A stretch of 64,000 nt of DNA from an uncultured Acidobacteriota bacterium (lineage in GTDB: Bacteria > Acidobacteriota > Vicinamibacteria > Fen-336): assembly GCA_963823195.1 (NCBI GenBank), contig CAWGKR010000005.1:418042-482041 (forward strand), written 5' to 3'. Within the stretch, counting starts at the first letter, position 1; every line of letters starts with the position of its first letter. Both the position numbers and the translations under genes were made by a program. Positions 11,672 through 63,355 of the stretch are shown here, in pieces. The notes below the pieces were generated by a model. That model was not told the DNA's origin. It did no database searches and worked only from the letters and a program-made list of their open reading frames with translations.

Positions 11672-11709
11672 GCTCTAGAGCCTCCTCGAGGGTCTCGTGG
11701 TTCCGCCGT

Positions 11710-12506: not shown

Positions 12507-12623
12507 CCACGGCCTCCTGAAGAAACTCTGAGAAAGCGGGCTCGCGCGTCTCGGCGTTCGGGCGGGACACTACCGCAGGAACGCGGGCCCCGTCAAGACG
12601 GCTCGTGTCCCTCGCGACGGTTC

Positions 12624-24359: not shown

Positions 24360-24395
24360 TCGCGACCCCCCGGCTCCAAGGCTGACCCTTTGGTG

Positions 24396-25817
24396 ATGCA
24401 GCAAAAGCTCGGCCTCTCGGCCCGCCTCTCGCAGAGACTCATCCTCACGCCGTCTCTGCAGCAGGCCATCAAGCTGCTCCCCCTCACGACCCTCGAGCTC
24501 GTCGAGGTCCTCGAGCAGGAAGTGATGGAGAACCCCCTGCTGGAGGAGGTGCCCACCCAGGAAACGATGTCGGTGGACGAGGTGGCGCAGCAGGAGGCGA
24601 GCGAAAAGGCCGAGAAGGACGATCCCCTGAAGGACATCGATGTCGACAAGTTCTTCGAGGAATATGTCGACGACGGGGGATATCGCGGGACCCGGAGCGC
24701 CGAGATCCCCGAGATGCCCCCGATCGAGAACACCCTCACCGAGTCGCAGGACCTGTACGACCACCTCTCCTGGCAGCTCCGCATGTCGGTCTCCGACGAG
24801 CTGATCCTGGAGATCGGTGAGGCGATCATCCACAACCTCGAGGACGACGGGATGCTGCGGGCGTCCCTCGAGGAGATCGCCAACATGGGGCCCTATCCCG
24901 AGGCCGAGGTGGAGAAGGCCCTGGCCGTCGTGCAGGCCCTGGACCCGCCGGGCGTCGCCGCCCGGAGCCTCGTGGAGTGCCTGCGCCTCCAGCTGCGGCA
25001 CCTGGGCCTCGAGGGATCGCCCCCCGACGTCATGGTGAGGGATCACATCAAGCAGCTCCAGAGCCATCAGTACGCCGACATCTCCCGGCAGATGGGCCTC
25101 ACCCCGGAGGAGGTCTCGGAGCATCTCGAGATCATCAAGCACCTGGATCCGAAGCCCGGGCTCAAGTACAGCCCCGACCGGTCGACCTACGTCCTCCCCG
25201 ACGTCTTCGTGGTGAAGGAAGGGGACGAGTACAAGATCATCCTGAACGACGAGAGCCTGCCCAAGCTCCGCATCAGCCCCACGTACAAGCGGATGCTGGA
25301 CGTGAAGGAGCCGGGCTCCGAGGAGACGAGGAGCTACGTCAAGGACAAGCTCAGGAGCGCGCTCTGGCTCCTGAAGAGCGTGGACCAGCGGCAGCGGACG
25401 ATCTACAAGGTCGCGGAGTCCATCGTGAAGCACCAGCGAGGCTTCCTCGACGGCGGCGTCCAGCACCTTCGGCCTCTCGTCCTTCGCGACGTCGCCAACG
25501 ACATCGGGATGCACGAGTCGACGGTCTCCCGCGTCGTCGCCAACAAGTACATGCACACGCCGCGGGGCGTCTACGAGATGCGGTACTTCTTCCACAGCGG
25601 GATCCAGTCCACGATGGGCGAGGCCATCAGCTCGGTGACCATCAAGGACAAGATCCGCCACATGATCGACGAGGAGGACCAGACACGCCCCTTGTCGGAC
25701 TCGAGGATCGCCGAGCTCCTGGGGCAGCGCGGCCTTCCGCTGGCCCGGCGCACCGTGGCCAAGTACAGGGAGGAGCTGCGGATCCCGCCCTCCAACCTGC
25801 GCCGATCGGTGCAGTGA
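24396..25817 (+). CDS. rpoN: RNA polymerase sigma-54 factor
   Basis: N-terminus MQQKLGLS..LILTPSLQQAIKLL, and the RpoN box ARRTVAKYREELRIP near the C-terminus. Confidence 0.9.
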   Translation: MQQKLGLSARLSQRLILTPSLQQAIKLLPLTTLELVEVLEQEVMENPLLEEVPTQETMSVDEVAQQEASEKAEKDDPLKDIDVDKFFEEYVDDGGYRGTRSAEIPEMPPIENTLTESQDLYDHLSWQLRMSVSDELILEIGEAIIHNLEDDGMLRASLEEIANMGPYPEAEVEKALAVVQALDPPGVAARSLVECLRLQLRHLGLEGSPPDVMVRDHIKQLQSHQYADISRQMGLTPEEVSEHLEIIKHLDPKPGLKYSPDRSTYVLPDVFVVKEGDEYKIILNDESLPKLRISPTYKRMLDVKEPGSEETRSYVKDKLRSALWLLKSVDQRQRTIYKVAESIVKHQRGFLDGGVQHLRPLVLRDVANDIGMHESTVSRVVANKYMHTPRGVYEMRYFFHSGIQSTMGEAISSVTIKDKIRHMIDEEDQTRPLSDSRIAELLGQRGLPLARRTVAKYREELRIPPSNLRRSVQ

Positions 25818-25851
25818 TTCCGCGGGGTCCACGCCTTTGGGAGGGACGGCC

Positions 25852-26383
25852 ATGAGGATCGAATACACGGGGCGGCACGCCGCGGTCCCCGACGAGGTCC
25901 GGGAGCTCGCGGAGCGCAAGCTGGGCAAGGTCGCGAAGCTCCTCCCCGGGATCACCGATGTCCACGTCGTCGTCGCGACGGACAAGCACCGTCAGATCGC
26001 CGAGGTGAGCCTCCACTCTCCCCACCTGACCCTCACGGCCGCTCGGGAGAGCGGCGACATCGCCACCGCCCTCGCGACGGCCATCGATACCCTCGCCCGG
26101 CAGGCGCAGCGCCACGTCGGCAAGCTCCGCGCGCGCAAGCGGAACGGCAAGGACCGCGCCGAGGCCGCGGCCACGGCGGGCGGCGGCGGCGCAGGAGCGG
26201 ACGCCGCGCGTCATCCGAAGCCGCCGTTTCGTGGCAAAGCCCATGACGATCGAGGAGGCCGCTCTCGAGATGGGGGCGAGCGACGTCGGCTTCCTCGTCT
26301 TCCGAGACGCGGCCACCGAGCGCTTCAGCGTCCTCTACAAGAGAAAGGACGGGAACCTGGGGCTCATCGAGCCCGGGGCCTGA
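25852..26383 (+). CDS. hpf: Ribosome hibernation promoting factor (long form); one frame break (~26210)
   Basis: N-terminus [27 protein letters not shown]. The C-terminal dimerisation domain [15 protein letters not shown]...[28 protein letters not shown] lies in a second frame. Confidence 0.8.
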
Positions 26384-26393
26384 GACGAGGCCC

Positions 26394-27420
26394 GTGGCCG
26401 CTCCCCGGGACCGCCGCGCGGGCCAGGCGCCCAACGTCGTCACGGTGAGGACGCTCGTGGGCCGCGACGCGCCGGACCTGGGCCTGAAGGTCGTGGCGGG
26501 ACGGGCGGGGCTCGGGCGCGAGGTGCAGCTCTCCCGGGTCCAGAGACCCGGCCTCGCCCTCACGGGCTACACCGACTACATCCGCTACGGCCGCGTCCAG
26601 ATCATCGGCGGGAGCGAGATCGGGTACCTCCGCACGCTGAGTCCAGGCGCAGCGGGGGCAGGTCCTCGGCAAGCTCGTGCGGTGCCGGCTCTCCTGCTTC
26701 GTCGTGACCAAGGGGCTGTCGCCCCCACGGGAGCTGGTCGAGAAGGCCGAGGCCCGGGGGATTCCGGTCCTCGTCACACCTCTCGAATCGACGCCCTTCA
26801 TCAAGCACCTCTCGTCGTTCCTCGACGAGAAGCTCGCCATGCGGGTGCACCTCCACTCGGTCCTGACCGACGTCTTCGGCCTGGGCGTCCTCATCACCGG
26901 CGAGAGCGGCGTTGGGAAGTCGGAGTGCGCCCTGGATCTGGTGGATCGCGGCCATCGGCTGGTCGCCGACGACGTCGTGGAGATCAAGCGGATGTCCGAC
27001 GTCCTCGTGGGCGCGTCCCCCGAGCTCACCCGCTACCACATGGAGCTCCGCGGCCTGGGCGTCCTCAACATCAAGGACCTGTACGGCGTGTCGTCGGTGC
27101 GCATCTCCAAGCGCATCGAGCTGGTCGTGAGCCTGGAGCGATGGGACAGCGAGAAGGAATACGACCGCCTCGGGCTGCAGAACGAGAAGTTCATGGTCCT
27201 GGGCGTCGAGGTGCCCCTCATCCGCATGCCCGTCGGGCCCGGAAGGAACACGGCGCTTCTCGTCGAGGTGGCCTCGCGGAACCAGCTCCTCAAGGAGCGC
27301 GGATACGACGCGGCCCGGCGCTTCTCCGAGCGCGTCGACGCCATCCTCGCCGCCCGCCCGGCGCGCAAGCGTGTGGCGCGGCGATCCGTCGGACGGGCCC
27401 GGAAGGGGAGGGGGAAGTGA
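26394..27420 (+). CDS. hprK: HPr kinase/phosphorylase; one frame break (~26650)
   Basis: The N-terminal domain is in ORF 26394.. and the catalytic domain in ORF 26677..27420. P-loop GESGVGKSE, with ADDVVEI and LRGLGVLNI. Confidence 0.85.
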
Positions 27421-39906: not shown

Positions 39907-40975
39907 TCAGCAGAACTCGAGGAGCGCGAACTCGGCGCCGAACCCGGGCCCGAAGGCGCCCAGGAGACCCTTCTCGCCGGCGCGCACGTCGGCGCAGCGG
40001 AGCATCTCGTCCAGGACGAAGAGGACCGTCACCGAGCTCATGTTCCCGTGGGCCGCCAGGACTGCCTCGGTGGGGGCCAGGTCGCACGGCCTGAGGCCGA
40101 GGCGCTCGGTCATCACCTCGATGATCTTGCGCCCGCCGGGATGCAGGATCCATCGGCTGATGTCCGCCCGCGACAGGCTCCGGGGGCCCAGGAAGGCGTC
40201 GACGCCGGCTTTCACCTCGCGCTCGACGAAGGGAGCCAGCTCACGGTCCAGGATGATCTGGAGCCCCTGGTTGCGCAGCCGGAAGCCCATGAGGTGCGTG
40301 GTGCCGGGGAAGAAGAAGCTGTCGGCGTCGAGGAGACGCACGAGGCCGGCGGAGGCGAGCGGGTGGTCCGCCCCCACGAGTACGGCCGCCGCGCCTCCGT
40401 CGCCGAAGATGGCCGACGACACGATGTTGGTGGCGGAGCGGTCCCAGCGCTGGAACGTCAGGCTGGACAGCTCGACGGCCAGCACGAGGGCGGCGCGATC
40501 GGGGTGCGCCGCGAGGTGGTCCGCGGCTCGGGCGAGCCCCACGACGCCCCCCGCGCACCCGCTCTCGGTGATGGGGAGGCGGACGAGGCGCGGGCCGAGG
40601 CCGAGAGCGTCGGCCACGTAGGCATCGAGAGCCGGGATCATGAAGCCGGTGCACGAGACGCTGACGACCAGATCGACGTCGGCCGGCACGAGACCGGCGC
40701 TCGCCAGGGCTCGCCGCCCCAGGTCCACCGCGATATCCCGCGCGAACTCGCCGTACCGGTCGTTCTGCCCCTCGAAGTCGCGGGGGAAGAAGACCTCCTC
40801 GATGGGCACCACGCTGGCCCGGGAGGCGACGCCCGCGGCGGCGTACACGGGAAGGAGACGCAGGGCGTTCGGGTCGTCGCTCTCGGCGAGCCACTCCTCG
40901 ACCCAACGCGTGACGATCTCCTGGTCGTACCGGATACGGAGGAACGAACCGCTCGACCGAGAGCACGGTGGCCAT
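39907..40975 (-). CDS. Type III polyketide synthase (chalcone/stilbene synthase family); one frame break (~40932)
   Basis: Catalytic contexts ESGCAGGV (Cys), WILHPGGRKI (His) and HGNMSSVTV (Asn). The N-terminus MATVLSVERFVPPY|RYDQEIVTRWVEEW joins across two frames. Confidence 0.85.
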
Positions 40976-49447: not shown

Positions 49448-49933
49448 ATGCAGATCGAGATGACGATCAAGGGGTTGATGATCGACCCCATCACCAACAT
49501 GCCGATCATCGTCCTTCGCGACGAGGAAGGTCAGCGCATCCTGCCGATCTGGGTGGGGGTCTTCGAGGCCAATGCAATCGCCCTGCAGATCGAGAAGGTC
49601 GAGACCCCTCGGCCGATGACCCACGACCTCCTGAAGAACATCATCAACGACCTGAAAGCGAGCGTCGAGCGCATCGTGGTGTGCGGCCTGAAGGAGAACA
49701 CCTTCTACGCGACCATCGAGCTGCGCGCCTTCGGAGGGAGCGTCACGATCGATGCGCGCCCCTCGGACGCGATCGCGCTCGCGCTTCGGACGCAGTCTCC
49801 GATCTTCGTCGAGGAGGACGTGATCCAGGACGCCAAGGGCCTGGAGGCGGGCAAGGAATCCCACGACGTCGGTCGCCTTCGAAAGTGGCTCGAGGGCCTC
49901 TCCGACGAGGAGCTGGGCAAGTACAAGATGTAA
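49448..49933 (+). CDS. Bifunctional nuclease family protein (DUF151/BFN)
   Basis: Intact 161-aa ORF with ILPIWVGVFEANAIA, THDLL and IDARPSDAIALALR, typical of BFN domain proteins. Confidence 0.8.
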   Translation: MQIEMTIKGLMIDPITNMPIIVLRDEEGQRILPIWVGVFEANAIALQIEKVETPRPMTHDLLKNIINDLKASVERIVVCGLKENTFYATIELRAFGGSVTIDARPSDAIALALRTQSPIFVEEDVIQDAKGLEAGKESHDVGRLRKWLEGLSDEELGKYKM

Positions 49934-49970
49934 GGGACGTCACGCGTTCTCCGCCGCCTCCCGTTTACCC

Positions 49971-50000
49971 TTGACCCTCGCGCGCCGGATTGCCTAAGAT
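49971..50000 (+). promoter_or_regulatory. Possible sigma-70-type promoter TTGACC-18 nt-TAAGAT upstream of parA
   Basis: Hexamers read directly from the sequence, 36 nt upstream of GTG 50036. Confidence 0.35.
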
Positions 50001-50035
50001 GCGCTCGGTTCCATGCCTGCCTTCCCCCGGGTGAC

Positions 50036-50794
50036 GTGTTGATCACCATCGCCATCGCCAACCAGAAGGGCGGCGTCGGGAAGACGACGACCGCGATCAA
50101 CCTCGCCGCGGCCCTGGCCATGCGCGGACGTCGGACGCTGCTCGTCGACCTGGATCCCCAGGGGAACTCGTCGATGACGTACCTCGACGTCCGGTCGCTG
50201 GCGCGGTCGATGTACGACGTCCTGGGCGAGGGGATCCCGCTGGCGGACGTCATCATTCCCTCGGCGGTCCCGAATCTGGAGCTGGCGCCGTCGCGCATCT
50301 CCCTTGCGAAGATCGAGGCCAAGCTCGTCGGAGAGATCGACGGCCACTTCAAGCTGAAGGACGCCATCGAGAGCATCCGGGACCGCTTCGAGTTCGTGAT
50401 CATCGACACGCCGCCGGCCCTCGGCCTCATCACCGTCAACGCGCTGGTGGCCGCCACGCATCTGCTCGTCCCCGTGCAATCGAGCTACTTCGCCTTGGAG
50501 GGGACCGACGACCTTCTCGAAACCGTGGAGAAGATCCGTTCCCGGCCCAACCCGAACCTCAAGCTGCTGGGAGCCGTCATCACGCTCCACGACAAGCGCA
50601 CGACGCTGTCCCGAGACGTCCAGAAGGCCATCGGGAACGTCTTCGGAGATCGCGTCTTCCAGACGACCATCAGCAAGAGCATCCGTCTCGAGGAGAGCCC
50701 GGCCCACCGCGAGTCCATCTTCACTTTCGCGCCGCAATCCACCGGCGCCTACGAGTACTACCGCCTCTGCGAGGAGGTGATCGAACGTGTCTAA
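50036..50794 (+). CDS. parA: ParA/Soj chromosome partitioning ATPase
   Basis: Deviant Walker A IANQKGGVGKTT, with VIIDTPPALG and LEESPAHRESI. Confidence 0.9.
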   Translation: MLITIAIANQKGGVGKTTTAINLAAALAMRGRRTLLVDLDPQGNSSMTYLDVRSLARSMYDVLGEGIPLADVIIPSAVPNLELAPSRISLAKIEAKLVGEIDGHFKLKDAIESIRDRFEFVIIDTPPALGLITVNALVAATHLLVPVQSSYFALEGTDDLLETVEKIRSRPNPNLKLLGAVITLHDKRTTLSRDVQKAIGNVFGDRVFQTTISKSIRLEESPAHRESIFTFAPQSTGAYEYYRLCEEVIERV

Positions 50795-51632
50795 CATCCG
50801 CCGTATGGGCCTTCCCGACGCTCTGCGCATGCGTCACGACTCCCACTTCGTCGAACAGCTCGGACGCCCCGGGGGGACGCCGGTGGGACGCCTCATTCCC
50901 ATCGAGGACATCGAACCCAACCCCCACCAGCCGCGCCAGGCGCTCGGGGACCTGTCCGAGCTGATCGCGTCCATCCGCGAGAAGGGGATTCTCGAACCGA
51001 TCCTGGTGCGGCCGAAGGGGAGCCGCTTCCAGATCATCGCCGGCGAGCGACGCTTCCGCGCTGCGACCGAGGCGGGGCTGGCCGACATCCCGTGCGTCGT
51101 GCGTGACACCTCCGACGCCGAGACCATGGAGATCGCGCTCATCGAGAACCTCCAACGCAAGGATCTCAGCGCCTTTGAAGAAGCCGACGGCCTCAAGACG
51201 TTGGCCGAGACGTATGGTTATACGCACGAAAAGATGGCCGAGAAGATCGGGAAGAGTCGGAGCGCCCTGACCGAGACGCTCTCTCTCACGGCCATGCCGG
51301 ATCACGTTCGAGAGCTTTGTCGGCTGGCCGACATTTCGTCTAAGTCATTGCTGCTACAGATTGTTAGGCAATCTGATTCCAAGAAAATGGTCGCCTTGGT
51401 CGGCCAACTGCAGCAAGAGGGCGCCACGCGAGAGACCGCTCGTCGGCTCGCGCGAGAGGGCAAGCCCAAGACGGCAGCCAAGGGCCGCCCGCAGAACTAT
51501 GTCTTCCGTTACCAGCCGAAGGAGAGGTCGTTCTCCCTCGCCCTTCAGTTCCGGAAGAGCCAGGTTCCCCGCGAGGAGATCGTTCGCGCCCTGCAAGCCA
51601 TCATCGAAGACCTGACCCGCGAAGACGAGTAG
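50787..51632 (+). CDS. parB: ParB/Spo0J partition protein
   Basis: Overlaps parA by 8 nt. ParB box PNPHQPRQ and ILVRP...FQIIAGERRFRA, HTH GYTHEKMAEKIGKSRSALTETL. The 3' third is markedly lower in GC. Confidence 0.9.
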   Translation: MSNIRRMGLPDALRMRHDSHFVEQLGRPGGTPVGRLIPIEDIEPNPHQPRQALGDLSELIASIREKGILEPILVRPKGSRFQIIAGERRFRAATEAGLADIPCVVRDTSDAETMEIALIENLQRKDLSAFEEADGLKTLAETYGYTHEKMAEKIGKSRSALTETLSLTAMPDHVRELCRLADISSKSLLLQIVRQSDSKKMVALVGQLQQEGATRETARRLAREGKPKTAAKGRPQNYVFRYQPKERSFSLALQFRKSQVPREEIVRALQAIIEDLTREDE

Positions 51633-51876: not shown

Positions 51877-52951
51877 ATGAAAGCCGGCACGCGCATCCAC
51901 CGCCTGGCGAGGATCGCCGGGAAGGTGGCCTGGGCGCTACTCGACCGAAGCCATCCCCTGCTCGTCCACGTGGTCCCGATGCGGCGCTGCAACCTCTCCT
52001 GCGCCTACTGCAGCGAGTACGACACCGTCTCGAAGCCGGTGGCGCTCGCCGCGATGCTCGAGCGGATCGACCGGCTGGCCGACCTGGGCACCGCGATGGT
52101 GACCGTCAGCGGCGGCGAGCCCCTGATGCACCCGGACCTCGAGCGCATCGTGGCTCGCGCGCGCCAGCGGGGGATGCTCGTCTCGCTCATCAGCAACGGG
52201 TACTACCTCTCGCCCGAGCGGATCGACGCCCTGAACCGGGCGGGGCTCGACCACTTCCAGATCAGCATCGACAACGTGGAGCCCGACGAGAGCTCGACCA
52301 AGAGCCTGCGCGTCCTGGAGCCCAAGCTCCGGTGGCTCGCGGAGCGGGCCGACTTCACGGTCACGATCAACTCCGTGCTGGGCGGCGGCGTGAAGAAGCC
52401 CGAGGACGCGGTGGTGATCGCCCGGCGCGCGCGGGAGCTGGGCTTCGGTAGCTCCCTCGGCATCGTTCACGACGGCCACGGCCAGCTGAAGGCCTTGAGC
52501 CCCGCCGAGATGAGGGTCTACGAGGAGCTGCGCCGGATGCAGGGGCGCGGCTTCTCGCGCCTCAATCGGCGCTTCCAGGACAACCTGGCCCATGGGCGCC
52601 CCCACGAGTGGAGCTGCCGGGCCGGGGCGCGCTATCTCTACGTCGACGAGAAGGGAATCGTCAGCTACTGCTCCCAGCAGCGCGGCATGCCCGGGATTCC
52701 CCTCGAGCGCTTCACGCCGCGAGGACGTCCGGCGCGAGTACCGGTCCAAGAAGAGCTGCGCTCCCTTCTGCACGGTGAACTGCGTCCAGCAGGTCGCCCT
52801 GCTCGACAACTGGAGATCCCCCCAGACGCGTCTGCGGCCGGTCTTCCCTCGAACGCGGGGGTCCCGCGCCGCCCACGCCCCCGGGGCCCCAGGGCGACGG
52901 CGTTCTCGCCGGGTAGCCGGATGCCTGAGCCCGATCTCCGCGCTCTGGTGA
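51877..52951 (+). CDS. Radical SAM protein with SPASM-like Cys-rich C-terminus; frame break (~52720). The real stop may be TAG 52914-52916.
   Basis: CNLSCAYC (CxxxCxxC) near the N-terminus and the GGEPL motif. C-terminal Cys clusters WSCRAG...VSYC and KKSCAPFCTVNC. Confidence 0.7.
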
Positions 52952-53711
52952 CCGGTGCCTCCAGCGGCATCGGCGCCTCGTTCGCCCGCGCCATCCGTTC
53001 CCGCGGCGAGCGCCTGGTGCTCGTGGCACGGCGTGAGGATCGCCTGCGCGTCGCTCGCACAGGAGCTCGGCGGCGGCGGGGACGTGGCCGTCGTCGTTGC
53101 CGACCTGGCCGCGCCCGACGGGCCCGAGCGGCTCCAGGCGGAGGTCGAGCGCGCGGGGTTCCAGGTCGACTTCCTCGTGAACAACGCGGGATCCGGCGAC
53201 ACCGGGCGCTTTCGCCGACCAGCCGATCGAGCGCCTGCGCGCCATGATCGACCTGAACGCCCGCGCCCTGGTGGAGCTGACCCGGCGCTTCCTCCCCGGG
53301 ATGATCCAGAGGGGACGCGGCCGGATCGTCAACGTGGTCTCCAACGGGGCCTTCCAGCCCGTCCCGTATCTGAACGTCTACGCCGCGACGAAGAGCCTCG
53401 TGCTCTCGTTCACCGAGGGGCTGGCCACGGAGCTCGAGGGGACCGGGGTTCGCGTGCAGGCGCTGTGTCCCGGCCTCACCGAGACCGAGTTCTTCGACGT
53501 CGCCCGGACGAGCAGGGACCTCATGGTCAACCGGCTCCCGCGGATGACCCCCGAGGACGTGGTCGCCTGCTCGCTTCGGGGGCTGGAGAAGGGGAGGCTC
53601 CGGGTCATCCCGGGTTTCCAGAACCGCCTCCTCGCGTCGGTCGTGCGCTTCGTCCCTCGTTCGCTGGCCCGAGGGATCGCGGCGAGGCTCTACAAGCCCC
53701 GGTACCCCTGA
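52921..53711 (+). CDS. Classical short-chain dehydrogenase/reductase; two frame breaks (~53045, ~53215)
   Basis: TGASSGIG, NNAG and the YAATK (YxxxK) catalytic motif. The pieces lie in three + frames and end at 53711. Confidence 0.8.
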
Positions 53712-53733
53712 CGGGGAGGCGCCCCGGCTTTTT
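53712..53733 (+). terminator. Weak intrinsic terminator after the SDR gene
   Basis: CGGGG-AGGCG-CCCCG hairpin followed by GCTTTTTG. Confidence 0.35.
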
Positions 53734-53774: not shown

Positions 53775-53853
53775 ATCGAGTCGCTTTTGTGACCCCCGGG
53801 CCATCCCTTTCGCCCGTCTCGTCCGGGGATGCCAATGATTTGAGGTGCAGCCT

Positions 53854-55134
53854 ATGGACGCGGTCCAGAAGAAGGACGCCGCCAAGCCGACGTTCTCGGA
53901 CTACGACTACAGCAATTTCTACTACGGCGCGGGAGACGACCCCGTCAACCTCCTGGGGCCCTTCCGGGACTGGTACGAGGAGGCCGTCCCGAACGGCTAC
54001 TACCTCTACTCCGAGCCCCTGGAGACGGCGCCCACCACGAGGGCGCGGGTCAAGAACCGGAAGACGGGCGTCGTCCAGGACCTGCTGAACCTGGCCTCCT
54101 ACAACTATCTGGGGATCTCGTATCGCCCGGAGGTGAAGAAGGCCGCCATCGACGCCGTCGAGAAGTACGGCCTCGGGGCCTCCGGCTCGCCGATCCTCTC
54201 GGGAACGATGGACGTCCACTTGAAGCTCGCCGACGCCATGGCCCGCTTCAAGGCCAAGGAAGCGGCGATCCTGTTCCCGACGGGATACAGCGCCAACGTG
54301 GGCTTCATCTCGAGCCTGATGCGGGCGGGGGACAACGTCATCATCGACCAGTACTCCCACGCCTCCATCGTCGACGGGGCGATCCTGGCGAAGTCCAAGA
54401 CCGTCTTCTTCCGCCACAACAACCCCATGGACCTGGAGCGGAAGCTCCTGAAGTGCACGGGGAAGAAGCTCGTCATCGTCGAGGGCGTGTACTCGATGGA
54501 CGGCGACGTCTGCCAGCTCCCGGAGATCGTCGAGGTGTGCAAGCGCCACGGCGCCCGGATCCTGATCGACGAGGCCCACTCGACGTTCCTCTTCGGCCCC
54601 AACGGGCGCGGCGTGGCCGAGCACTTCGGCCTCGACAAGGAGGTCGACTTCCACCTCGGGACCTTCTCGAAGAGCCTCGGCGGGCAGGGCGGCTTCGTGT
54701 GCGGATCGAAGGACCTGATCGACTACGTCAACGCATTCGGCCGGTCGCGGTTCTTCTCGTGCAACCTGGCGCCGCCCATCGCCGCGGGCCTGTTGGCGGG
54801 CGTCGAGATCGTCGAGAACGAGCCGCAGCTCCGCGCCAAGCTCTGGAGCAACGTGGCCTACCTCCGGCGCCGGTTCGCCGAAGAGGGAATCGACATCGGC
54901 AAGAGCACGTCCCAGGTGATGCCGGTCCTGGTGAACAACGACGCCAAGGTGTTCGCCGTCGCCGAGAAGATCCAGAACCGCGGGCTCTATCTCCAGCCGG
55001 TCACCTACCCGGCGGTGCCGAAGCACAAGTCCCGCCTCCGCATCTCGGTCTCCGCCGCCCACAGCGAGGCGGAGCTCGAGTTCGCGGTGGGCGTCATCGG
55101 CGGCGTGCTCCGGGAAGAGGGGATCATCCATTGA
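53854..55134 (+). CDS. Alpha-oxoamine synthase, serine-palmitoyltransferase-like (PLP-dependent)
   Basis: Intact ORF (ATG 53854 follows a GAGG Shine-Dalgarno; GTG 53845 is also possible). PLP-lysine GTFSKSLGG, and blocks NYLG, FRHNNPMDLERKL, EGVYSMDGD, DEAHSTFLFGPNGRGV. From memory, these resemble Sphingomonas Spt more than BioF. Confidence 0.75.
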   Translation: MDAVQKKDAAKPTFSDYDYSNFYYGAGDDPVNLLGPFRDWYEEAVPNGYYLYSEPLETAPTTRARVKNRKTGVVQDLLNLASYNYLGISYRPEVKKAAIDAVEKYGLGASGSPILSGTMDVHLKLADAMARFKAKEAAILFPTGYSANVGFISSLMRAGDNVIIDQYSHASIVDGAILAKSKTVFFRHNNPMDLERKLLKCTGKKLVIVEGVYSMDGDVCQLPEIVEVCKRHGARILIDEAHSTFLFGPNGRGVAEHFGLDKEVDFHLGTFSKSLGGQGGFVCGSKDLIDYVNAFGRSRFFSCNLAPPIAAGLLAGVEIVENEPQLRAKLWSNVAYLRRRFAEEGIDIGKSTSQVMPVLVNNDAKVFAVAEKIQNRGLYLQPVTYPAVPKHKSRLRISVSAAHSEAELEFAVGVIGGVLREEGIIH

Positions 55135-55800
55135 AGACCCGGTACGGGTACTCCAACGCCATCAGCGGCTTCTTCGAGTTCCCGACCGAGAACGCCCGCC
55201 GGATCCTGCCCGCGCACCTGGAGCCCGTGGAGCTTCACCACGGGACCAGCATCTTCTCGATGACCGCCTTCGACTTCACCGAGAGCGAGGTCGGCGCCTA
55301 CGGCGAGGCCGTCATGTCGGTCATCGTGTCCCCCCTCGTGAAGCCGGGGGAGCGCCTGCCCGAAGTCGGCGTTCTATCCCTACCTCGTCGCCACCACGAC
55401 GAAGGCCGCCCGCGACCACGCCATCGAGCGCTGGCACCTTCCGCACTGGATGGAGGACGTGGAGATGTCCTTCAGCCGCGACGGATCGCGCATCAACGCC
55501 AAGGTGTCGGCCGACGGCGCGCCCGTGGCCGAGCTCACGATCAGCGACCACTCCTGGAACCCCGTCTCGCACCTGTACCAGTCCTTCATGAGGAACGACA
55601 ACGGGGCCTACCTGGCGAACATCGTCATGGAGGGGGACCAGAGCGAGCACGAGGAGGAGACCGGACTCCTGGTGCTCTCGGACCATCCGTTCAACCGGGA
55701 CCTGGTCATCTCGGAGGTCTACGAGATCCCGTTCCGCGAGATCTGGATGCGCAGCGGCGCCCAGACCTTCGATCCGCTGATCCAGCTCCAGACCGCCTGA
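55131..55800 (+). CDS. Acetoacetate decarboxylase (ADC)-like family protein; one frame break (~55358)
   Basis: TTG 55131 overlaps the upstream stop. The reconstructed sequence ...GERLPKSAFYPYLVATTTKAARDHAIERWHLPHW... fits the ADC-like beta-cone family pattern. Confidence 0.5.
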
Positions 55801-55828: not shown

Positions 55829-56743
55829 TTGAACAGCGACGAGCGCGTCTTCGTCATCTTCAACCCGCGCTCGGGTCGGGGGCGCGGGGCACAGGTCGTG
55901 GCCCCGGTCTTGGACGCCCTGTCGGCCCACAAGGGCGTCGAGCATGCCCTCACCGGCGCGCCCGGCGACGAGGAGCGCCTCGCGACGGAGGCCATCGGCC
56001 GGGGCTTCTCGACGATCGTGGCCGTCGGCGGCGACGGCACGTGGAGCAACGTGGGCAACGGCATCTTGAAGTCCGGGAAGCCGGTGAAGCTGGGGCTCAT
56101 CGCGGGCGGGACCGGCTGCGACCTGGCCAAGTCGCTGGGCATCCCGGGAAAGGACCTGCGGGCCGCGGGCCGCGTCATCCTCGATGGGCACACCCGGAAG
56201 ATCGACGTGGGACGCATCGAGGAGCGCTACTTCCTCAACATCGCGGGGTTCGGCTACGACATCGCCGTCATCGAGGATTCCTGGACCGTCGGGTACCTCG
56301 AGGGAGAGTTCCTCTACCTCTATTGCGCCGTCCGGCAGCTCGGCTCGTTCCCCGGCTTTCCGGTCGAGGTCGCGACCGACGGGGGCCCCTTCGTGCCTCA
56401 CGAGCTCCTGATGCTGATCCTCGCCAACGCGCGCGTCTTCGGCGGGGGCTTCAAGATCGCGCCCGACGCGGACCTGGGGGACGGCCGGCTCGACGTCATG
56501 GCGTTCCGCAACATGGGGTTCTGGGAACGGGTCGGGATCATGGTGAGGCTCCTGCGCGGCACCCATCGCGGCAGCGCCCACGTGGCGGCCTCCAGCGCGT
56601 CGTCCCTCACGCTGCGCTTTCCCTCGCCCCCGGCCTACGAGACCGACGGGGAGTGGAACCGAGCCAAGTCGGCCGAGCTCCGGGTCGAGACGATCCCCGG
56701 CGCCCTCGAGGTGCTCGTTCCCGCCGGCGCTCCGCCCCGATGA
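55829..56743 (+). CDS. DAGK/LCB5-family lipid kinase (YegS/BmrU-like)
   Basis: Intact 304-aa ORF with VFVIFNPRSG, AVGGDGTWSNV and GTGCDLAKSLG. Confidence 0.8.
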   Translation: MNSDERVFVIFNPRSGRGRGAQVVAPVLDALSAHKGVEHALTGAPGDEERLATEAIGRGFSTIVAVGGDGTWSNVGNGILKSGKPVKLGLIAGGTGCDLAKSLGIPGKDLRAAGRVILDGHTRKIDVGRIEERYFLNIAGFGYDIAVIEDSWTVGYLEGEFLYLYCAVRQLGSFPGFPVEVATDGGPFVPHELLMLILANARVFGGGFKIAPDADLGDGRLDVMAFRNMGFWERVGIMVRLLRGTHRGSAHVAASSASSLTLRFPSPPAYETDGEWNRAKSAELRVETIPGALEVLVPAGAPPR

Positions 56744-57525
56744 TCCTGGCCATGAGAGCCGCTCGGAGCGCGCTCTCGCTGCTCGTCGTGCTGTCGTGGA
56801 TGGTGCTCGTCGGGGCGCCGCTCCTGTACCTCCTCGTCCTTCCGGTCGGCGCCTGCCTCTCGGGACGGCCGCGGCGCGCCCTGACGTCCGCCTACATGAA
56901 GCTCATCTGCGCCGGGATCCTGGCGGGGTTCCGGCTCGGGGGAGCGCGCTTCGAGCGGCGAGGCACGATCCCGACCGACGGCCATTCGCTCATCCTGATG
57001 AACCACCAGTCCCTCCTGGACATCGTCACCGTCACCCTCATGGGCCAACCGTACGTCCCGGCGTTCGTGCCTCGCCTCCGGTACGCCCGCTGGTACATCC
57101 TGCTGGTCGGCGCGAGCATCTGGCTCCTGGATTGCCCCGTGGTCGACCCGAAGCGAGACCCCAAGGGCGCCGTCTCCGCCATGCGCCGCGCGGCCCTCGA
57201 GCATGGCCACGGCCTTCTCGTGTTTCCCGAGGGACACCGCAGCGTCGACGGCGAGGTGCGTCCGTTCAAGACGGCCGGTACGCTGGCCGCACTCGCCGCT
57301 CGGCGCCTCCCGGTGTACGTCGTGGTGAGCGACGGCTTCTCGTTCGGCCGCCGCCTCGTGGACTTCCTCTGGAGCGTTCCACAGATCCGCGGGGAGACGG
57401 AGATTCTCGGACCCTTCGCGCCCCCCGAAGGCGAGGAGGACCTTCTCCCGTTCATCCACGAGATGCGAGGGGTCATCGTGGATCGGCTTCGCGAGCTCAG
57501 GGCCAGGCGCCATGCCGGCGTCTGA
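56740..57525 (+). CDS. PlsC/LPLAT-family acyltransferase with N-terminal TM helices
   Basis: ATG 56740 overlaps the kinase stop. Acyltransferase motifs NHQSLLD (HxxxxD) and FPEGHRS. Confidence 0.8.
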   Translation: MILAMRAARSALSLLVVLSWMVLVGAPLLYLLVLPVGACLSGRPRRALTSAYMKLICAGILAGFRLGGARFERRGTIPTDGHSLILMNHQSLLDIVTVTLMGQPYVPAFVPRLRYARWYILLVGASIWLLDCPVVDPKRDPKGAVSAMRRAALEHGHGLLVFPEGHRSVDGEVRPFKTAGTLAALAARRLPVYVVVSDGFSFGRRLVDFLWSVPQIRGETEILGPFAPPEGEEDLLPFIHEMRGVIVDRLRELRARRHAGV

Positions 57526-58498
57526 TCCGCTCCGGGAGGCCATCCGGGCCCGCGCCTTTTCGCGGGCCCCGCAGGCCGAAGCCGAGGCGCTGGCGCGCAC
57601 CGTGGTGGAGGGCGGCGGAGACAGCGTGCTCGGCGTCGTCTTCTTCGGCTCCCGGAAGACCCAGGCGAGCCCCGATCCGTGGAGCGGCTACGACCTCTTC
57701 GTCCTGACCCGCGAATACCGCTCCTTCTATCGCTCCTTGAAGGCCGCCGGGGCCCTCCGGCGGAGCCGGAGCGTGGTGGCCGCGCTCAACGCGATCCTGC
57801 CCCCGAACCAGATCTCGGTGCGTGGCGCGGGGGAGTCGCGGGCCCTCGCCAAGTGCGCCGTCATCTCCCTCGCCACGCTGCGCCGGGAGACATCCCCGAA
57901 GCGGCGCGACCACTTCTGCGCCGGCCGCCTCTTCCAGCCGACGGAGGTTCTCTACGCCCGCGACGAGGTCACGGCCGACGTGATCCTGGACGCGCTCGTG
58001 AGCGCCCATGCCATGACCCTGTCCTGGATCCGGCCCTGGCTCCCGCCGACGTTCGACGTGGAAGCGTATTGCCGGACGCTCCTGCGCGTGTCCCTCGGAC
58101 GCGAGATCCGCCCCGAGCCCGAGGGGCGCTCCGAGGCACTCTGGCAGGCGCAGAAGGACTATCTCGAAGCGGTCTACGGGATCTTCCTGCGCGGCCAGGC
58201 CACGGCGGGGGAGCTGCGCGTCGCGGGCAACGGCCTCTATTCCCTGGCCCGGCCCGTGTCGGCGGGCGAGCGACGGCGCCTCGAGGCCTACTTCCGCCGG
58301 TCGAAGGTCCGGGCCACGGAGCGGTGGTTCAAGTACATGGTCACCTTCGAGGACTGGCTCGAGTACATCGTCCACAAGGCCGAGCGCCATTCGGGCGAGG
58401 AGATCGTCCTGACACCTCGCGAGCGCCGGCTGCCGATCGTCTTCCTCTGGCCGCGGGTGATACGCTACCTCCGCGACAAAGGCCGGCCCCGGCGATAG
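57512..58498 (+). CDS. Tam41/Mmp37-like nucleotidyltransferase-fold protein (putative lipid-phosphate cytidylyltransferase)
   Basis: Intact 328-aa ORF. By-eye alignment to yeast Tam41 recalled from memory: VVFFGSRKTQ vs FGYGSGVFEQ; KCAVISLATL...FCAGRLFQPTEVL vs KYGVVSMETL...YLAGRLQKPVKIL; FDVEAYCRTLLRVSLGREIR vs FDEFQFYKEITALSYAGDIR. The family assignment needs an HMM check. Confidence 0.45.
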   Translation: MPASDPLREAIRARAFSRAPQAEAEALARTVVEGGGDSVLGVVFFGSRKTQASPDPWSGYDLFVLTREYRSFYRSLKAAGALRRSRSVVAALNAILPPNQISVRGAGESRALAKCAVISLATLRRETSPKRRDHFCAGRLFQPTEVLYARDEVTADVILDALVSAHAMTLSWIRPWLPPTFDVEAYCRTLLRVSLGREIRPEPEGRSEALWQAQKDYLEAVYGIFLRGQATAGELRVAGNGLYSLARPVSAGERRRLEAYFRRSKVRATERWFKYMVTFEDWLEYIVHKAERHSGEEIVLTPRERRLPIVFLWPRVIRYLRDKGRPRR

Positions 58499-58513: not shown

Positions 58514-59251
58514 GTGCGTCCCTCGGTCCTCGTGCTCATCGGCGTGCTCGCCGCGGCCTTCCTCTCCATGGCCGTCTACGCCGCCGTGGGCCGCGGCCGC
58601 GACGCCGATGCGACGAAGAAGGGCACGCGCCTCTTCCTCGGAGGCCTGGACTTCCTCGTCCACTGGTTCCTCTGGGCCCTGGCGCCGGCGGAGCGCCTCT
58701 TCCTCCGCCTCGGCTTCACGCCCGACGTCTTCAACTTCACGGGGCTCGGCTTCGGCCTGGCGAGCGGCGTGGCCCTGGGCCTGGGGGAGCTGGAGCTCGG
58801 CGGATGGGCCATCGCCCTGGGAGGCATCTCCGACATCCTCGACGGCCGGATCGCCCGGGCCAGGAACCTTGCGTCTCCCTACGGGAAGTTCATCGACAGC
58901 ACCCTGGATCGCTTCGTCGAGGTCTTCGCGTTCCTCGGTCTCGTGGTCTATTTCCGCGACCGGCCGGTCGGGGCGTTCCTGGCGGCGGCGTCCATGGCCG
59001 GGTCGCTCCTCGTGAGCTACGCCCAGGCGCGGGGCGAGACCGTCGCCGTCAGCGGCTCCGGCGGCCTCATGCAGCGGGCCGAGCGTCTCGTGCTCATGTG
59101 CCTGGTTTGCCTGATCGACCCGACCCTGTCGGCCTGGCGGGGCTGGTCCGAAGGGACCGCCGTCTTCGGGGTCCTGGTGCTCATGGCGGTCGCCACGTTC
59201 GCCACGGCCATCCACCGGACCGTGTGGATCGCCCGGCGCCTCCGGTCCTGA
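58514..59251 (+). CDS. CDP-alcohol phosphatidyltransferase family protein
   Basis: GTG start; 245 aa, multi-TM. Motif DILDGRIAR-x8-G-x3-D-x3-D. Confidence 0.85.
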   Translation: MRPSVLVLIGVLAAAFLSMAVYAAVGRGRDADATKKGTRLFLGGLDFLVHWFLWALAPAERLFLRLGFTPDVFNFTGLGFGLASGVALGLGELELGGWAIALGGISDILDGRIARARNLASPYGKFIDSTLDRFVEVFAFLGLVVYFRDRPVGAFLAAASMAGSLLVSYAQARGETVAVSGSGGLMQRAERLVLMCLVCLIDPTLSAWRGWSEGTAVFGVLVLMAVATFATAIHRTVWIARRLRS

Positions 59252-59734: not shown

Positions 59735-59839
59735 CGGTTGGGCCTCCGTTCGGGAACGGCGAAATCGTATCCGAAACGACGGGGTGTCGGCCACCGCATG
59801 CTCCTTGACGCAGGAAATAGGAATACGTATCATAGAGGT

Positions 59840-60106
59840 ATGAAATCCATCGTGGGTGAGCGTGGGCAGGTCACGATCCCCAAGGTCCTTCGGCGGAGCC
59901 TCGGCCTGCGCGCCGGAGAGGAGGTCCAGTTCGAGGAGCGCCACGGAGCGATCGTCCTCTCCAGGGCACCCCGGTCGGACCCGTGGGACGCCCTGGTGGG
60001 CATCGTCAAGAACCTTGACGTGGACGCATCCCTCGACACCCTGAGGGGGCCGGCCTGGCGAGCTGGGAGCGACGCGCGGGTCGCCAAGAGGCGCCGCCGA
60101 AGATGA
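59840..60106 (+). CDS. vapB: AbrB/MazE/SpoVT-family antitoxin (VapB-like)
   Basis: ATG 59840 follows an AGAGG Shine-Dalgarno. Looped-hinge-helix N-terminus GERGQVTIPKVLRRSLGL. The stop overlaps the vapC start (ATGA). Confidence 0.8.
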   Translation: MKSIVGERGQVTIPKVLRRSLGLRAGEEVQFEERHGAIVLSRAPRSDPWDALVGIVKNLDVDASLDTLRGPAWRAGSDARVAKRRRRR

Positions 60107-60516
60107 TCACGGCCGTGGACTCGTCGGTCCTCCTGGACATCCTGACGGCGGACGCTCGCTTCGGCGAGGCCTCGTTGGCGGCTGTTCGCGGGGCCCAGCG
60201 TCTGGGGGCCCTGGTGGCCTGCCCGGTGGTCTGGGCCGAGGTCCGGGCGCTGACGGCTGACGTGGCCGTCCTCCGGGAACGTCTGCCGAGCGCCGGGGTT
60301 CATTTCGACCCGTTCGACGAGGAGGCGGCGGAGCTTGCCGGCACGATCTGGCGCTCGTACCGCCGCCAGGGAGGGTCGCGTGATCGACTCGTCCCGGATT
60401 TCCTGATCGGAGCCCACGCGCAGGTCCGCGGCGGGGGCCGGCTCCTGTCCCGGGACCGAGGGTTCTACCGCAGGTACTTCCGCAGCCTGAAGCTCATCGA
60501 CCCGAGCGACCGCTAG
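60103..60516 (+). CDS. vapC: PIN-domain ribonuclease toxin VapC
   Basis: Intact 137-aa ORF with N-terminal acidic residue VDSSVLLD, and DFLIGAHA...LLSRD. Confidence 0.8.
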   Translation: MITAVDSSVLLDILTADARFGEASLAAVRGAQRLGALVACPVVWAEVRALTADVAVLRERLPSAGVHFDPFDEEAAELAGTIWRSYRRQGGSRDRLVPDFLIGAHAQVRGGGRLLSRDRGFYRRYFRSLKLIDPSDR

Positions 60517-61234: not shown

Positions 61235-63355
61235 ATGACCATCACCATGACGACGAAGAAGCGCGTCGTGCTACCCCTCCTTCTCCTGGTGACCATGAAG
61301 AGTGCCTCCCTTGGCGCGGAAGCGCCGCCGCCGACCGATGATCCCTACCTCTGGCTCGAGGACGTCACGGGAGAGAAGGCTCTCGCCTGGGTCAAGGAAC
61401 AGAACGCCCTCAGCGTCGGAGAGCTCGGCGCCTCGGGCGCCTTCAAGTCCCTCGACGGGCGGTTCCTCAAGATCCTCGACTCCGAGGCCAAGATTCCGTA
61501 CGTCGAAAAGCTCGGCGACCTCTACTACAACCTCTGGCGGGACGCCGAGCACGAGCGCGGCGTCTGGCGACGCACGACCCTCGCCGAGTACCGCAAGGCG
61601 GAGCCGTCCTGGGAAGTGGTCCTCGATCTCGATGCGCTCGGGAAGACCGAGAACGAAAACTGGGTCTGGCACGGCGCCGAGTGCCTGAAGCCCGACTACA
61701 AGCGCTGCCTCGTCTCGCTGTCCCGCGGCGGCGCCGACGCCGACGTGACCCGCGAGTTCGACCTCGCCGCGAAGCAGTTCGTCCCGGGGGGCTTCTCGCG
61801 CCCGGAGGCGAAGGGGTCCCTCGGCTGGATCGACCTCGACACCGTCTACCTCTCGACCGATTTCGGCCCGGGCTCGATGACCCAGTCCGGCTATCCGCGC
61901 ATCGCCAAGGAGTGGCGCCGGGGAACTCCGCATGGACCAGGCCCGGACCGTCTACGAAGGCAAGCCCGAGGACATCTCTGTTGGGGCGTTCCGCGACCAT
62001 ACTCCGGGATACGAGCGCGACTTCGTCTACCGCGGCCCGACGTTCTTCACGAGCGAGGTCTATCTCCGCCGGGACGGCGCCCTCGTGGCCATCGACAAGC
62101 CCGCCGACGCCCAGCTGTCCGTCTACCGCGACCTTCTTCTTCTCACGCTGCGAAGCGACTGGACCGTCGGCGGGCGGACCTACCGCGCCGGCTCGCTCCT
62201 CGCGTCGGACTTCGAGGCCTTCCTCAAGGGCTCGCGGACTCTCGACGTGCTCTTCGAGCCCACCGCCCGCGCCTCCCTGGCCAGCTTCAGCCCGACCCTC
62301 CACCACATCCTTCTCAATACACTCGACAACGTTCGGAGCCGCGTCGAGGTCCTCACCCGCAAGGCCGGAGCGTGGACCCGGCAGCCACTCCCCGGCGTGC
62401 CGGACTTCGGCAGCGTGGACGCGACGGCCGTGGAGCCGGACCGCTCCGACGAGTTCTTCCTCACCGCAGACGACTTCCTGACTCCGACCAGTCTCTCTCT
62501 CGGCGTCGCAGGCACCAATGCCCGGGCGGACCGCTTGAAGTCCCTGCCCTCGTTCTTCGAGGCCGGCGACCTCGCCATCTCCCAGCACGAGGCCGTCTCG
62601 AAGGACGGCACCCACGTCCCGTACTTCCAGGTCTCGCGAAAGAACGTGGCGACCGATGGCACGAACCCGACGCTTCTCTACGGATACGGCGGGTTCGAGA
62701 TCTCCATGACTCCCGACTACGGCGGCGCTGAACGGGGCGGGATGGCTCGAGAAGGGCGGCGTCTACCTTCTCGCCAACATCCGCGGCGGAGGCGAGTTCG
62801 GACCGGAGTGGCACCACGCCGCCCTCAAGGAGAATCGCCACAAGGCCTACGAGGACTTCATCGCCGTCGCGGAAGACGCCATCGCGCGGAAGCTCACCTC
62901 GACACCCACACCTCGGCATCATGGGCGGCAGCAACGGCGGCCTGCTCATGGGCAACATGCTCACCATGCGGCCCGACCTCTTCGGCGCCGTGGTCTGCCA
63001 GGCGCCGCTTCTCGACATGAAGCGCTACTCCCATCTGCTCGCTGGCGCCAGCTGGATGGAGGAGTACGGCGACCCCGACGATCCGGCCCAATGGGAGTTC
63101 CTGAAGACGTTCTCCCCCTACCAGCAGCTCGCGAAGGGAGTCCGGTATCCGCGCACGCTCTTCACGACCTCGACCCGTGACGATCGCGTCCATCCCGGCC
63201 ACGCCCGCAAGATGGCGGCCAGGATGAAGGCGTTCGGTCAGGACGTGCTCTACTACGAGAACATCGAGGGAGGGCACGGCGGCGCGGCCACCAACGCCCA
63301 GACCGCCTTCATGCACGCCCTCGCCTACACCTTCCTCTGGAACCAGCTCCGGTAG
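61235..63355 (+). CDS. S9 prolyl oligopeptidase family serine peptidase, secreted; three frame breaks (~61930, ~62740, ~62900)
   Basis: Signal peptide, then DPYLWLEDV, a beta-propeller middle, and a catalytic domain with GGSNGGLL (Ser), RDDRVHP (Asp) and GGHGG (His). The pieces lie over ORFs 60842.., 61932.. and 62921... Confidence 0.85.

Follow-up and report, generated by a model that had tools for sequence, protein, structure and literature searches.

A divergent Tam41-like protein in a conserved six-gene lipid module of Acidobacteriota and Gemmatimonadota, a candidate source of a CDP-activated lipid

The nucleotidyltransferase (NTase) Tam41, or TAMM41, of mitochondria acts on phosphatidic acid for cardiolipin and has no operon. 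A bacterial Tam41 is known from Firmicutes (structure 7ecd); it is a canonical member of PF09139 acting on phosphatidic acid, and PMC11646218, in its summary of Kimura et al. (2022), has it reported as making cytidine diphosphate-diacylglycerol (CDP-DAG) and as membrane-bound via its C-terminal domain. Tam41 keeps one of the three acidic residues that are canonical in NTases, and basic residues serve cytidine triphosphate (CTP) (PMC11646218). CdsA (PF01148) and archaeal CarS carry out formally the same reaction as the one proposed below, with a CDP-lipid product that supplies CDP-alcohol phosphatidyltransferases, but these are integral-membrane folds unrelated to the protein described here. 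We have analysed a stretch of 64,000 nucleotides (the window) from an uncultured bacterium of the Vicinamibacteria (Acidobacteriota; assembly GCA_963823195.1, contig CAWGKR010000005.1, positions 418,042 to 482,041), in which a gene at 57512-58498 had been read by eye as a Tam41/Mmp37-type protein directly upstream of a CDP-alcohol transferase (the original prediction). This reading is supported by a fold search, by profile-profile comparison and by PF09139 matches among the relatives of the protein, and the gene belongs to a conserved six-gene module that also holds a gene resembling serine palmitoyltransferase (Spt).

A further system to be compared is the sphingolipid locus of Caulobacter, which comprises lptG2, lptF2, cpgA, cpgB, cpgC and spt (10.64898/2026.04.12.717747). 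Caulobacter cpgB is a biochemically proven ceramide kinase. The cpgC mutants retain ceramide phosphate and are without ceramide phosphoglycerate, and CpgC was described as having 'no conserved domains' (PMC9393093). The genetics, from Caulobacter only, put CpgC (CCNA_01219 / CC_1161) directly after ceramide-1-phosphate. CpgC was first proposed to add glycerate to ceramide phosphate; later a CDP-DAG-synthase-type InterPro domain was noted in CC_1161 and a nucleoside diphosphate-activated ceramide was speculated upon by Olea-Ozuna et al. (PMC11324152). Papers of 2025 and 2026 still term the mechanism unidentified. The term 'CDP-ceramide' was found nowhere in the literature searched, and the Caulobacter and ceramide-phosphate literature turned up by our search made no mention of Tam41. 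In Bacteroides (the BT_1523 pathway), inositol phosphoceramide is made from phosphatidylinositol (PI-DAG) by an AUR1-like enzyme (PMC9246714).

On the evidence of the fold search, the profile comparison and the Pfam matches of its relatives, the protein encoded at 57512-58498 (hereafter the target) is a very distant bacterial homologue of Tam41. The relationship is not visible from the single sequence. The check suggested with the original prediction, an hmmscan against PF09139 (gathering threshold 24 bits), gave no match at E <= 1 for the target sequence alone, and the only Pfam hit was to the Polbeta NTases at E 0.12. A scan of NCBIfam, which has no model for the family, gave nothing, no precomputed Pfam domain covers the target region among 778 scored relatives, and both phmmer with the target and hmmsearch with a profile of 37 close homologues gave only chance matches to the sequences of the PDB. 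The AlphaFold2 model of the target, calculated from alignment A1, has a mean confidence (pLDDT) of 89 and a predicted template-modelling (TM) score (pTM) of 0.88. Tam41 entries take the first five places among the fold matches of this model in the PDB (S. pombe 6ig2 and 6ig4, Firmicutes 7ecd), with E 1.1e-7 to 2.3e-6 and TM-scores, normalised to the matched structure, of 0.59-0.67 over 279-290 aligned columns. The highest scores are those to 7ecd (0.57 normalised to the query and 0.67 to the matched structure), at 10% sequence identity. Structural comparison with Tam41, another check that had been suggested, places Tam41 first in the PDB.

The next fold families in the ranking (Hailong HalB, ANT(4'), KNTase and LinB) have TM-scores of 0.22-0.39; HalB and ANT(4'), the first after Tam41, have 0.24-0.39, and for ANT, KNTase and LinB Foldseek gives E 8e-4 to 3e-3 and TM-scores of 0.22-0.35. 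A better match to enzymes of the ANT or KNTase type had been named as an outcome that would overturn the Tam41 reading, and the comparison went the other way (TM-score about 0.3 as against 0.6-0.67 for Tam41). An identity as an antibiotic- or KNTase-type NTase was rejected on these figures. The Adenyl_transf family of Pfam finds matches in just 3 of the 75 relatives, none of them better than E 0.068.

The sequence link was made with an alignment (A2) of 75 diverse full-length family members drawn from an exhaustive search of representatives. On their own, 48 of these 75 match PF09139 at E <= 1 (best E 1e-14), and one of the relatives, P0123, scores 29 bits. Against the two solved Tam41 sequences, the A2 profile reaches a probability of 97% (E 8.5e-11, 167 columns). 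These two sequences were taken from the PDB, where they were found with a fragment of human TAMM41 as query, and only the PDB sequences were used afterwards. When the profile of the narrow clade was compared by hhalign with the Tam41 sequences, singly or both, the result was not significant (E 0.11), and the link between the target and Tam41 therefore needs the intermediate sequences. In A2 the columns G46, S47, D61, P98, K114, R139, K274, K289 and R292 are invariant, and S58, S194, R200, R271, G295 and W313 are nearly so (S194 and R200 are present in at least 90% of the 75). Among these, G46/S47, D61, K114, R139, S194 and R200 align with residues that are identical in S. pombe and Firmicutes Tam41. 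The motifs, with the C-terminal helix considered below, are located as follows.

57641-57703, forward strand: NTase core with FFGSRK (G46, S47) and YDLFV (D61), aligning with YGSG and IDFIF of Tam41
57848-57940, forward strand: AKCAVIS (K114) and AGRLFQP (R139) blocks, aligning with KYGV[TI]S and GRFQKP of Tam41
58088-58117, forward strand: VSLGREIRPE block (S194, E198, R200), aligning with LSYxGDxRM of Tam41
58430-58480, forward strand: basic amphipathic C-terminal helix LPIVFLWPRVIRYLRDK of the target (predicted helix 308-322, hydrophobic moment 0.62, with the nearly invariant W313)

The three blocks originally picked out by eye are thus present, lie on the most conserved columns of the family and align with the solved Tam41 sequences. 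D61 is the single conserved acidic residue of the NTase core in the target family, which shows the active-site pattern of Tam41 (G-S, one acidic residue and conserved basic residues). In comparison with the mitochondrial enzyme, the target has the same fold and shares the G-S pair, the single Asp, the Lys of KxxV.S, the Arg of GRxxxP and S..[DE].R, at an identity of only 10-14%. A soluble or peripheral nature and membrane binding through the C-terminal region would also be common to both, the binding by the target being predicted, and the chemistry, formation of a CDP-lipid from CTP and a lipid phosphate, is presumed to be the same. The target differs in having Spt-like, lipid kinase and phosphatidylinositol-phosphate synthase (PIPS)-like partners. 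It has no Pfam match to PF01148 (CdsA, CTP_transf_1) and no polytopic membrane topology. No transmembrane segment is predicted (maximum 19-residue hydropathy 1.29), and together with the pI of 10.2 and the amphipathic C-terminal helix this suggests a peripheral-membrane protein. The helix is a probable membrane-binding element, at the same end of the protein as the domain by which bacterial Tam41 is thought, in the summary given by PMC11646218, to bind the membrane.

The target has 778 relatives at E <= 1e-3 in a database clustered at 90% identity, and 1046 representatives in one clustered at 50%. Most of the database and RefSeq names seen for family members are 'hypothetical protein', and some proteobacterial relatives carry the UniRef name Mmp37 or 'phosphatidate cytidylyltransferase'. 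The wider family has further clades in which a PF09139 gene stands alone in an unrelated setting. A bacterial Tam41 is not in itself new, as the Firmicutes protein 7ecd is already known and the proteobacterial genes in the CpgC position (below) belong to the same family; what is new is the divergent clade, which has no match in Pfam or NCBIfam.

The target lies in the following run of genes, which is referred to as the lipid operon.

51877-52951, forward strand: radical SAM protein, accessory to the module; one frame shift near 52700 (intact orthologue in locus L003)
52921-53711, forward strand: short-chain dehydrogenase/reductase (SDR), candidate 3-keto reductase, accessory to the module; two frame shifts, near 53050 and 53240
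53845-55134, forward strand: alpha-oxoamine synthase (AOS), closest to bacterial serine palmitoyltransferase (PF00155)
55131-55800, forward strand: protein with the acetoacetate decarboxylase (ADC) fold, preceded by the Spt-like gene and followed by that for the kinase; a single frame shift near 55360
55829-56743, forward strand: lipid kinase of the DAGK_cat / YegS-Rv2252-BmrU family (PF00781, PF19279)
56740-57525, forward strand: PlsC/LPLAT-type acyltransferase with an N-terminal membrane anchor (PF01553, E 1.8e-12; HX4D as NHQSLLD, and FPEGHRS)
57512-58498, forward strand: Tam41-superfamily NTase (the target), 328 aa, pI 10.2, no transmembrane segment, intact open reading frame
58514-59251, forward strand: CDP-alcohol phosphatidyltransferase of the PIPS / archaetidylinositol-phosphate synthase (AIPS) type (PF01066, E 4.5e-13)

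The intact frame of 328 aa, its coordinates and the two junctions given in the original prediction were all exact on re-reading. The frame runs from an ATG to a TAG and has a G+C content at third codon positions of 0.92, as expected for coding DNA in a genome of 69% G+C. We take the start codon to be right because the N-terminus lines up with the starts of 36 homologues. The last 14 nt of the acyltransferase gene are shared with the target, and the ATG of the acyltransferase itself overlaps the kinase stop as ATGA. On the other side the transferase starts with a GTG at 58514, 15 nt past the end of the target, and its AGGAG Shine-Dalgarno sequence overlaps the target stop codon.

The scores of the downstream transferase on NCBIfam are 113.7 bits for AIPS, 95.7 for PIPS, 45 for the DIPPS type and ~22 for PgsA and PssA, all below the equivalog cut-offs, and its best match in the PDB is M. 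tuberculosis PgsA1 (6h53). Among 41 orthologues there is no variation in the signature residues D107, D110, G111, A114, R115, G124, D128 and D132 or in R133 and Y169, while position 173 is R or K. The transferase shares with MtPgsA1 both this motif and residues of the inositol-phosphate site, R133, Y169 and R173 corresponding to R94, Y133 and R137, which mutagenesis ties to inositol-phosphate binding; P153 of MtPgsA1 is replaced by Ala. From these residues the acceptor of the transferase is probably inositol phosphate.

The upstream enzymes were classified in the same way. The best PDB match of the AOS is the Spt of Sphingobacterium (3a2b, 305.8 bits); Sphingomonas Spt scores about 250 and the best non-Spt protein 248.6. 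On the NCBIfam Spt model it scores 362.7 bits, below the equivalog cut-off, and its identity to the Spt encoded in a cpg-type locus of Roseomonas is 39%. The kinase scores 155.9 bits on TIGR00147, over the cut-off of 118.65, with DgkB (2qv7) as its best PDB match. The LPLAT has weak NCBIfam matches to OlsA and AGPAT. Intact orthologues of the ADC-like protein (221-231 aa) reach 29.2 bits on PF06314, for which the cut-off is 29.8; its profile has no match among PDB sequences, and NCBIfam has no model for it. One of the intact orthologues lies at L003:7646-8320. In the alignment of the ADC-like protein (A5), His, Glu, Asp and Arg are invariant at many positions. There is no invariant Lys, and thus it is not a Schiff-base acetoacetate decarboxylase.

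To see how far the gene order is kept, one genome per GTDB species was scanned with a narrow alignment as query. This gave 185 loci, of which 80 were kept, from Vicinamibacteria, other Acidobacteriota, Gemmatimonadota, Krumholzibacteriia and Latescibacteria; one Gemmatimonadota locus comes from a metagenome-assembled genome assigned to Gemmatimonas aurantiaca. Module genes were counted by tblastn of the window proteins on 83 loci, many of which end at contig ends. The CDP-alcohol transferase is present in 82 of the 83, the kinase in 71, the ADC-like gene in 68, the AOS in 66 and the LPLAT in 59, with the SDR in 28 and the radical SAM gene in 18. The Tam41-like and transferase genes are adjacent in 82 of the 83, in at least four lineages. 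The module genes are collinear in Vicinamibacteria; several modules of this class are without the LPLAT. In Gemmatimonadota (L044-L083) kinase-ADC-AOS and LPLAT-Tam41-like-transferase lie on opposite strands as a divergent pair of operons, and the linkage of the module has therefore survived rearrangement. Thus, a module of six genes is conserved, made up of the Spt-like AOS, the ADC-like protein, the DgkB/YegS-type kinase, the PlsC-type acyltransferase, the Tam41-like protein and the PIPS-like transferase. No further gene family recurs in the flanks of the 80 loci (within about 8 kb), and none related to inositol.

Some of the neighbours also occur as fusions. The LPLAT is fused to a Tam41-like domain in P0104, P0121, P0123, P0130 and P0126, which belong to five separate 50%-identity clusters, and there is one case (P0177) of a fusion of the Tam41-like and CDP-alcohol transferase domains. 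Further fusions join Tam41-like domains to cytochrome P450 (P0137 and P0147, 756 and 1152 aa) or, in P0268 (594 aa), to an NTP_transf_3 domain of the MobA/IspD-like kind, an arrangement that resembles a CpgD-CpgC fusion.

The family also provides a link with the sphingolipid loci of Proteobacteria. In Pseudomonas luteola the members of one A2 clade lie beside two NTP-transferase genes, two LptF/G paralogues, a CDP-alcohol transferase and a kinase of the diacylglycerol kinase (DAGK) family. A locus on a megaplasmid of Roseomonas mucosa (L088, NZ_CP025062.1) has the same set plus Spt and acyl carrier protein (ACP) genes. Both layouts match that described for Caulobacter. Over its whole length the target aligns with the protein that takes the CpgC position in P. 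luteola, at 30% identity and E 5e-28; the Roseomonas counterpart is likewise 30% identical (E 6e-21), and hhalign of the two clades gives 100% probability (E 2e-56, 301 columns). The comparison was made through these syntenic genes, the orthology of which to Caulobacter CpgC is taken from synteny; Caulobacter CpgC was not among the best 120 matches of the homologue search, in which the named ones were all from Gammaproteobacteria. Complete cpg-type loci occur in P. luteola (L084) and on Roseomonas megaplasmids, and their plasmid-borne Tam41-like genes are annotated 'hypothetical protein' in RefSeq.

With the loci of this type (Caulobacter, P. luteola, Roseomonas, Qipengyuania) the target module has in common a DAGK-fold kinase, a CDP-alcohol transferase and an Spt-type gene, which are found in 71, 82 and 66 of the 83 loci, respectively. 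However, the kinase and transferase are of other subfamilies, distant from the CpgB-like and CpgA-like genes of P. luteola and Roseomonas, and what is shared is the Tam41-like enzyme and the overall logic. The module has no LptF2/G2 paralogues or CpgD-type NTP transferases, no LptF/G or CpgD-type cluster recurs in its flanks and no gene for ACP was noted. The ADC-like and LPLAT genes are present instead. The head group is probably inositol phosphate, in contrast to the phosphoglycerate of the CpgC pathway. There is no AUR1-like gene of the Bacteroides kind in the module, the transferase of which would use the activated sphingoid lipid directly.

We consider it likely, from fold, motifs and gene order, that the target is a cytidylyltransferase supplying a CDP-lipid to the adjacent transferase. 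The context of a CDP-lipid donor, proposed originally from the adjacency of the transferase, has thus been strengthened by its conservation in 82 of 83 loci, but the Spt-like gene that heads the operon had been overlooked. Because the operon starts with this gene, the activated lipid is more likely to be sphingoid than a diacylglycerol, and a sphingoid lipid is further favoured since the closest relatives with a characterised context sit in the CpgC position. We therefore lean, at slightly better than even confidence, towards the more specific reading in which the target is a CTP:lipid-phosphate cytidylyltransferase that makes a CDP-sphingoid lipid for the transferase, with inositol phosphate as the probable acceptor. 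In this scheme the fold and family, the motif residues and the gene order are observed, and we infer the reaction catalysed, a sphingoid substrate, the acceptor and which of kinase and acyltransferase acts first. The Spt-like AOS would form a keto base, which the SDR would reduce; the lipid kinase would then phosphorylate and the LPLAT acylate it, giving most likely ceramide-1-phosphate or an acylated long-chain-base phosphate. The Tam41-like enzyme would move cytidine monophosphate (CMP) from CTP onto this lipid phosphomonoester, with release of pyrophosphate, and the PIPS-like transferase would exchange the CMP of the resulting CDP-lipid for a phosphorylated polyol, most likely inositol phosphate. 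Such a pathway would be the sphingolipid counterpart of that from phosphatidic acid through CDP-DAG to phosphatidylinositol phosphate (PIP). The adjacency, the fusions and the PIPS-like acceptor site offer a new, comparative kind of support for a CDP-activated sphingolipid intermediate.

Several observations weigh against the sphingoid scheme. For the kinase, the LPLAT, the Tam41-like and the PIPS-like proteins, four of the six, the closest characterised enzymes belong to glycerolipid metabolism, and the AOS falls under every NCBIfam equivalog cut-off. The LPLAT family is known for O-acylation and not for N-acylation. Genes for inositol-phosphate synthase, PIP phosphatase, bCerS and CerR do not recur within about 8 kb in the 80 loci. 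The connection to CpgC goes through the P. luteola and Roseomonas genes rather than the Caulobacter sequence itself, and the other P. luteola proteins are matched over short segments, the CpgB-like protein by the kinase over 100 aa only (E 2.5e-6) and the CpgA-like protein by the transferase over 75 aa only (E 5.6e-4). P0177, the fusion of the Tam41-like and transferase domains, comes from a contig of 1.8 kb and may be an artefact of a frame shift.

The main alternative, which accommodates the glycerolipid relatives of those four proteins, is that the target is an ordinary CDP-DAG synthase like the eukaryotic and Firmicutes Tam41, for which the kinase (from DAG) and the LPLAT (from lyso-phosphatidic acid) supply phosphatidic acid and from the product of which the PIPS-like enzyme makes PIP, the Spt-like and ADC-like genes serving elsewhere, for example in a separate lipid or a head-group alcohol. 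Both characterised Tam41 enzymes act on phosphatidic acid, the kinase is nearest to DgkB and YegS/Rv2252 and the LPLAT to AGPAT and OlsA, the transferase is nearest to the mycobacterial PIPS, which uses CDP-DAG, and the LPLAT-Tam41-like fusions suit a sequence from lyso-phosphatidic acid through phosphatidic acid to CDP-DAG. We nevertheless regard it as rather unlikely. It leaves unexplained the linkage with the Spt-like and ADC-like genes, which is held in both Vicinamibacteria and Gemmatimonadota despite rearrangement. The equally 'glycerolipid-looking' kinase of Caulobacter is a proven ceramide kinase, and it is ceramide phosphate that the cpgC mutant accumulates. Furthermore, psd and pssA genes in the window imply a housekeeping route through CDP-DAG, beside which a second dedicated source seems redundant.

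A different possibility is that no CDP-lipid is made at all, and that the target activates a soluble phospho-head group (giving, for example, a CDP-polyol for the CDP-alcohol transferase to couple to a lipid alcohol) or transfers the head group directly to the lipid phosphate, in the manner first put forward for CpgC. The mechanism of CpgC is, after all, still termed unidentified, some CDP-alcohol transferases take CDP-alcohol donors (the 45-bit match to the DIPPS type) and a fusion of a CpgD-like NTP_transf_3 domain with a Tam41-like one exists in P0268. This seems improbable to us, as the fold and motif residues are those of the lipid-phosphate cytidylyltransferase type, the transferase groups with the lipid-donor enzymes PIPS and AIPS, far above its DIPPS match, the lipid kinase of the module makes sense only with a lipid phosphate as substrate, and the amphipathic C-terminal end points to action at the membrane. 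That the target is an inactive or non-lipid protein of the NTase fold (an antibiotic, toxin-antitoxin or regulatory type), present in the operon by chance, is hardly credible. The weak Polbeta match (E 0.12) and the presence of ANT(4'), HalB and MNT-like proteins lower in the fold search are set against TM-scores of 0.2-0.35 for these as compared with 0.6-0.67 for Tam41, catalytic-motif residues that are invariant in 75 members and a gene order kept in 82 of 83 loci. The CDP-sphingoid lipid thus remains the product that we favour.

The two accessory genes stand at the upstream end of the operon. An intact orthologue of the SDR in L003 matches adh_short, with mycolate reductase as its top hit in NCBIfam. 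The SDR stop leads straight into a G+C-rich hairpin with a T-run behind it (53712-53726), which resembles a terminator; terminator-like sites in the region overall are no more numerous than expected by chance. The genes from the AOS to the CDP-alcohol transferase may be transcribed apart from the radical SAM and SDR genes. The frame breaks in the radical SAM, SDR and ADC-like genes look like indel errors of a long-read assembly; that these are pseudogenes was rejected, as the orthologues in L001 and L003 are intact and breaks of this kind also occur in unrelated genes of the window. Genes split across frames are found at 9397-13143 and 61271-63355, and include COX1 and UbiA-COX2 fragments and a prolyl oligopeptidase gene that is spread over three frames.

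Immediately upstream of the operon are a gene for a bifunctional nuclease and parA-parB (49448-51632), and further upstream there is a block of lptC/lptA-like, lptB, rpoN and hprK genes (21613-27420). On its other side, a gene for a VapC-type PIN toxin (60103-60516, forward strand) has a 4-nt overlap with a preceding small open reading frame that by eye resembles an antitoxin of the AbrB/SpoVT type (region 59738-60516); the two, which come shortly after the lipid operon, probably form a VapBC toxin-antitoxin pair. Elsewhere in the window there is a gene for a type III polyketide synthase (chalcone/stilbene synthase-like) at 39907-40848 on the reverse strand, and psd (808-1476), for phosphatidylserine decarboxylase, precedes a gene for a PssA-like CDP-alcohol transferase (DMLDGRIAR...GGELDSLCD, in the open reading frame 873-2234). 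From the psd and PssA-like genes, the organism would therefore also have the ordinary CDP-DAG-dependent route to phosphatidylserine and phosphatidylethanolamine.

The conserved six-gene module in abundant soil phyla is new. Our literature search found no reports of sphingolipids for Vicinamibacteria or Gemmatimonadota. Tentatively, we put forward the wider idea, which we see as possible rather than probable, of a fully 'Kennedy-like' sphingolipid route in Vicinamibacteria, Gemmatimonadota and related soil phyla. In it, a Tam41-fold enzyme would turn the lipid phosphate into CDP-ceramide and a PIPS-like transferase would join this to the head group, the product being a phospho-sphingolipid and probably an inositol-phosphate ceramide; the CpgC step would be explained in the same way, and the ADC-like protein would be a new enzyme in the formation of sphingoid bases or ceramide. 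If this is true, the open CpgC step would have a concrete mechanism, the transfer of CMP to ceramide-1-phosphate, and CDP-ceramide would be a new activated lipid intermediate. Inositol-type phosphosphingolipids would then be formed without a phosphatidylinositol donor, unlike in eukaryotes and Bacteroides, and sphingolipid-like membrane lipids would be present in Acidobacteriota (Vicinamibacteria) and Gemmatimonadota, which are very abundant phyla of soil.

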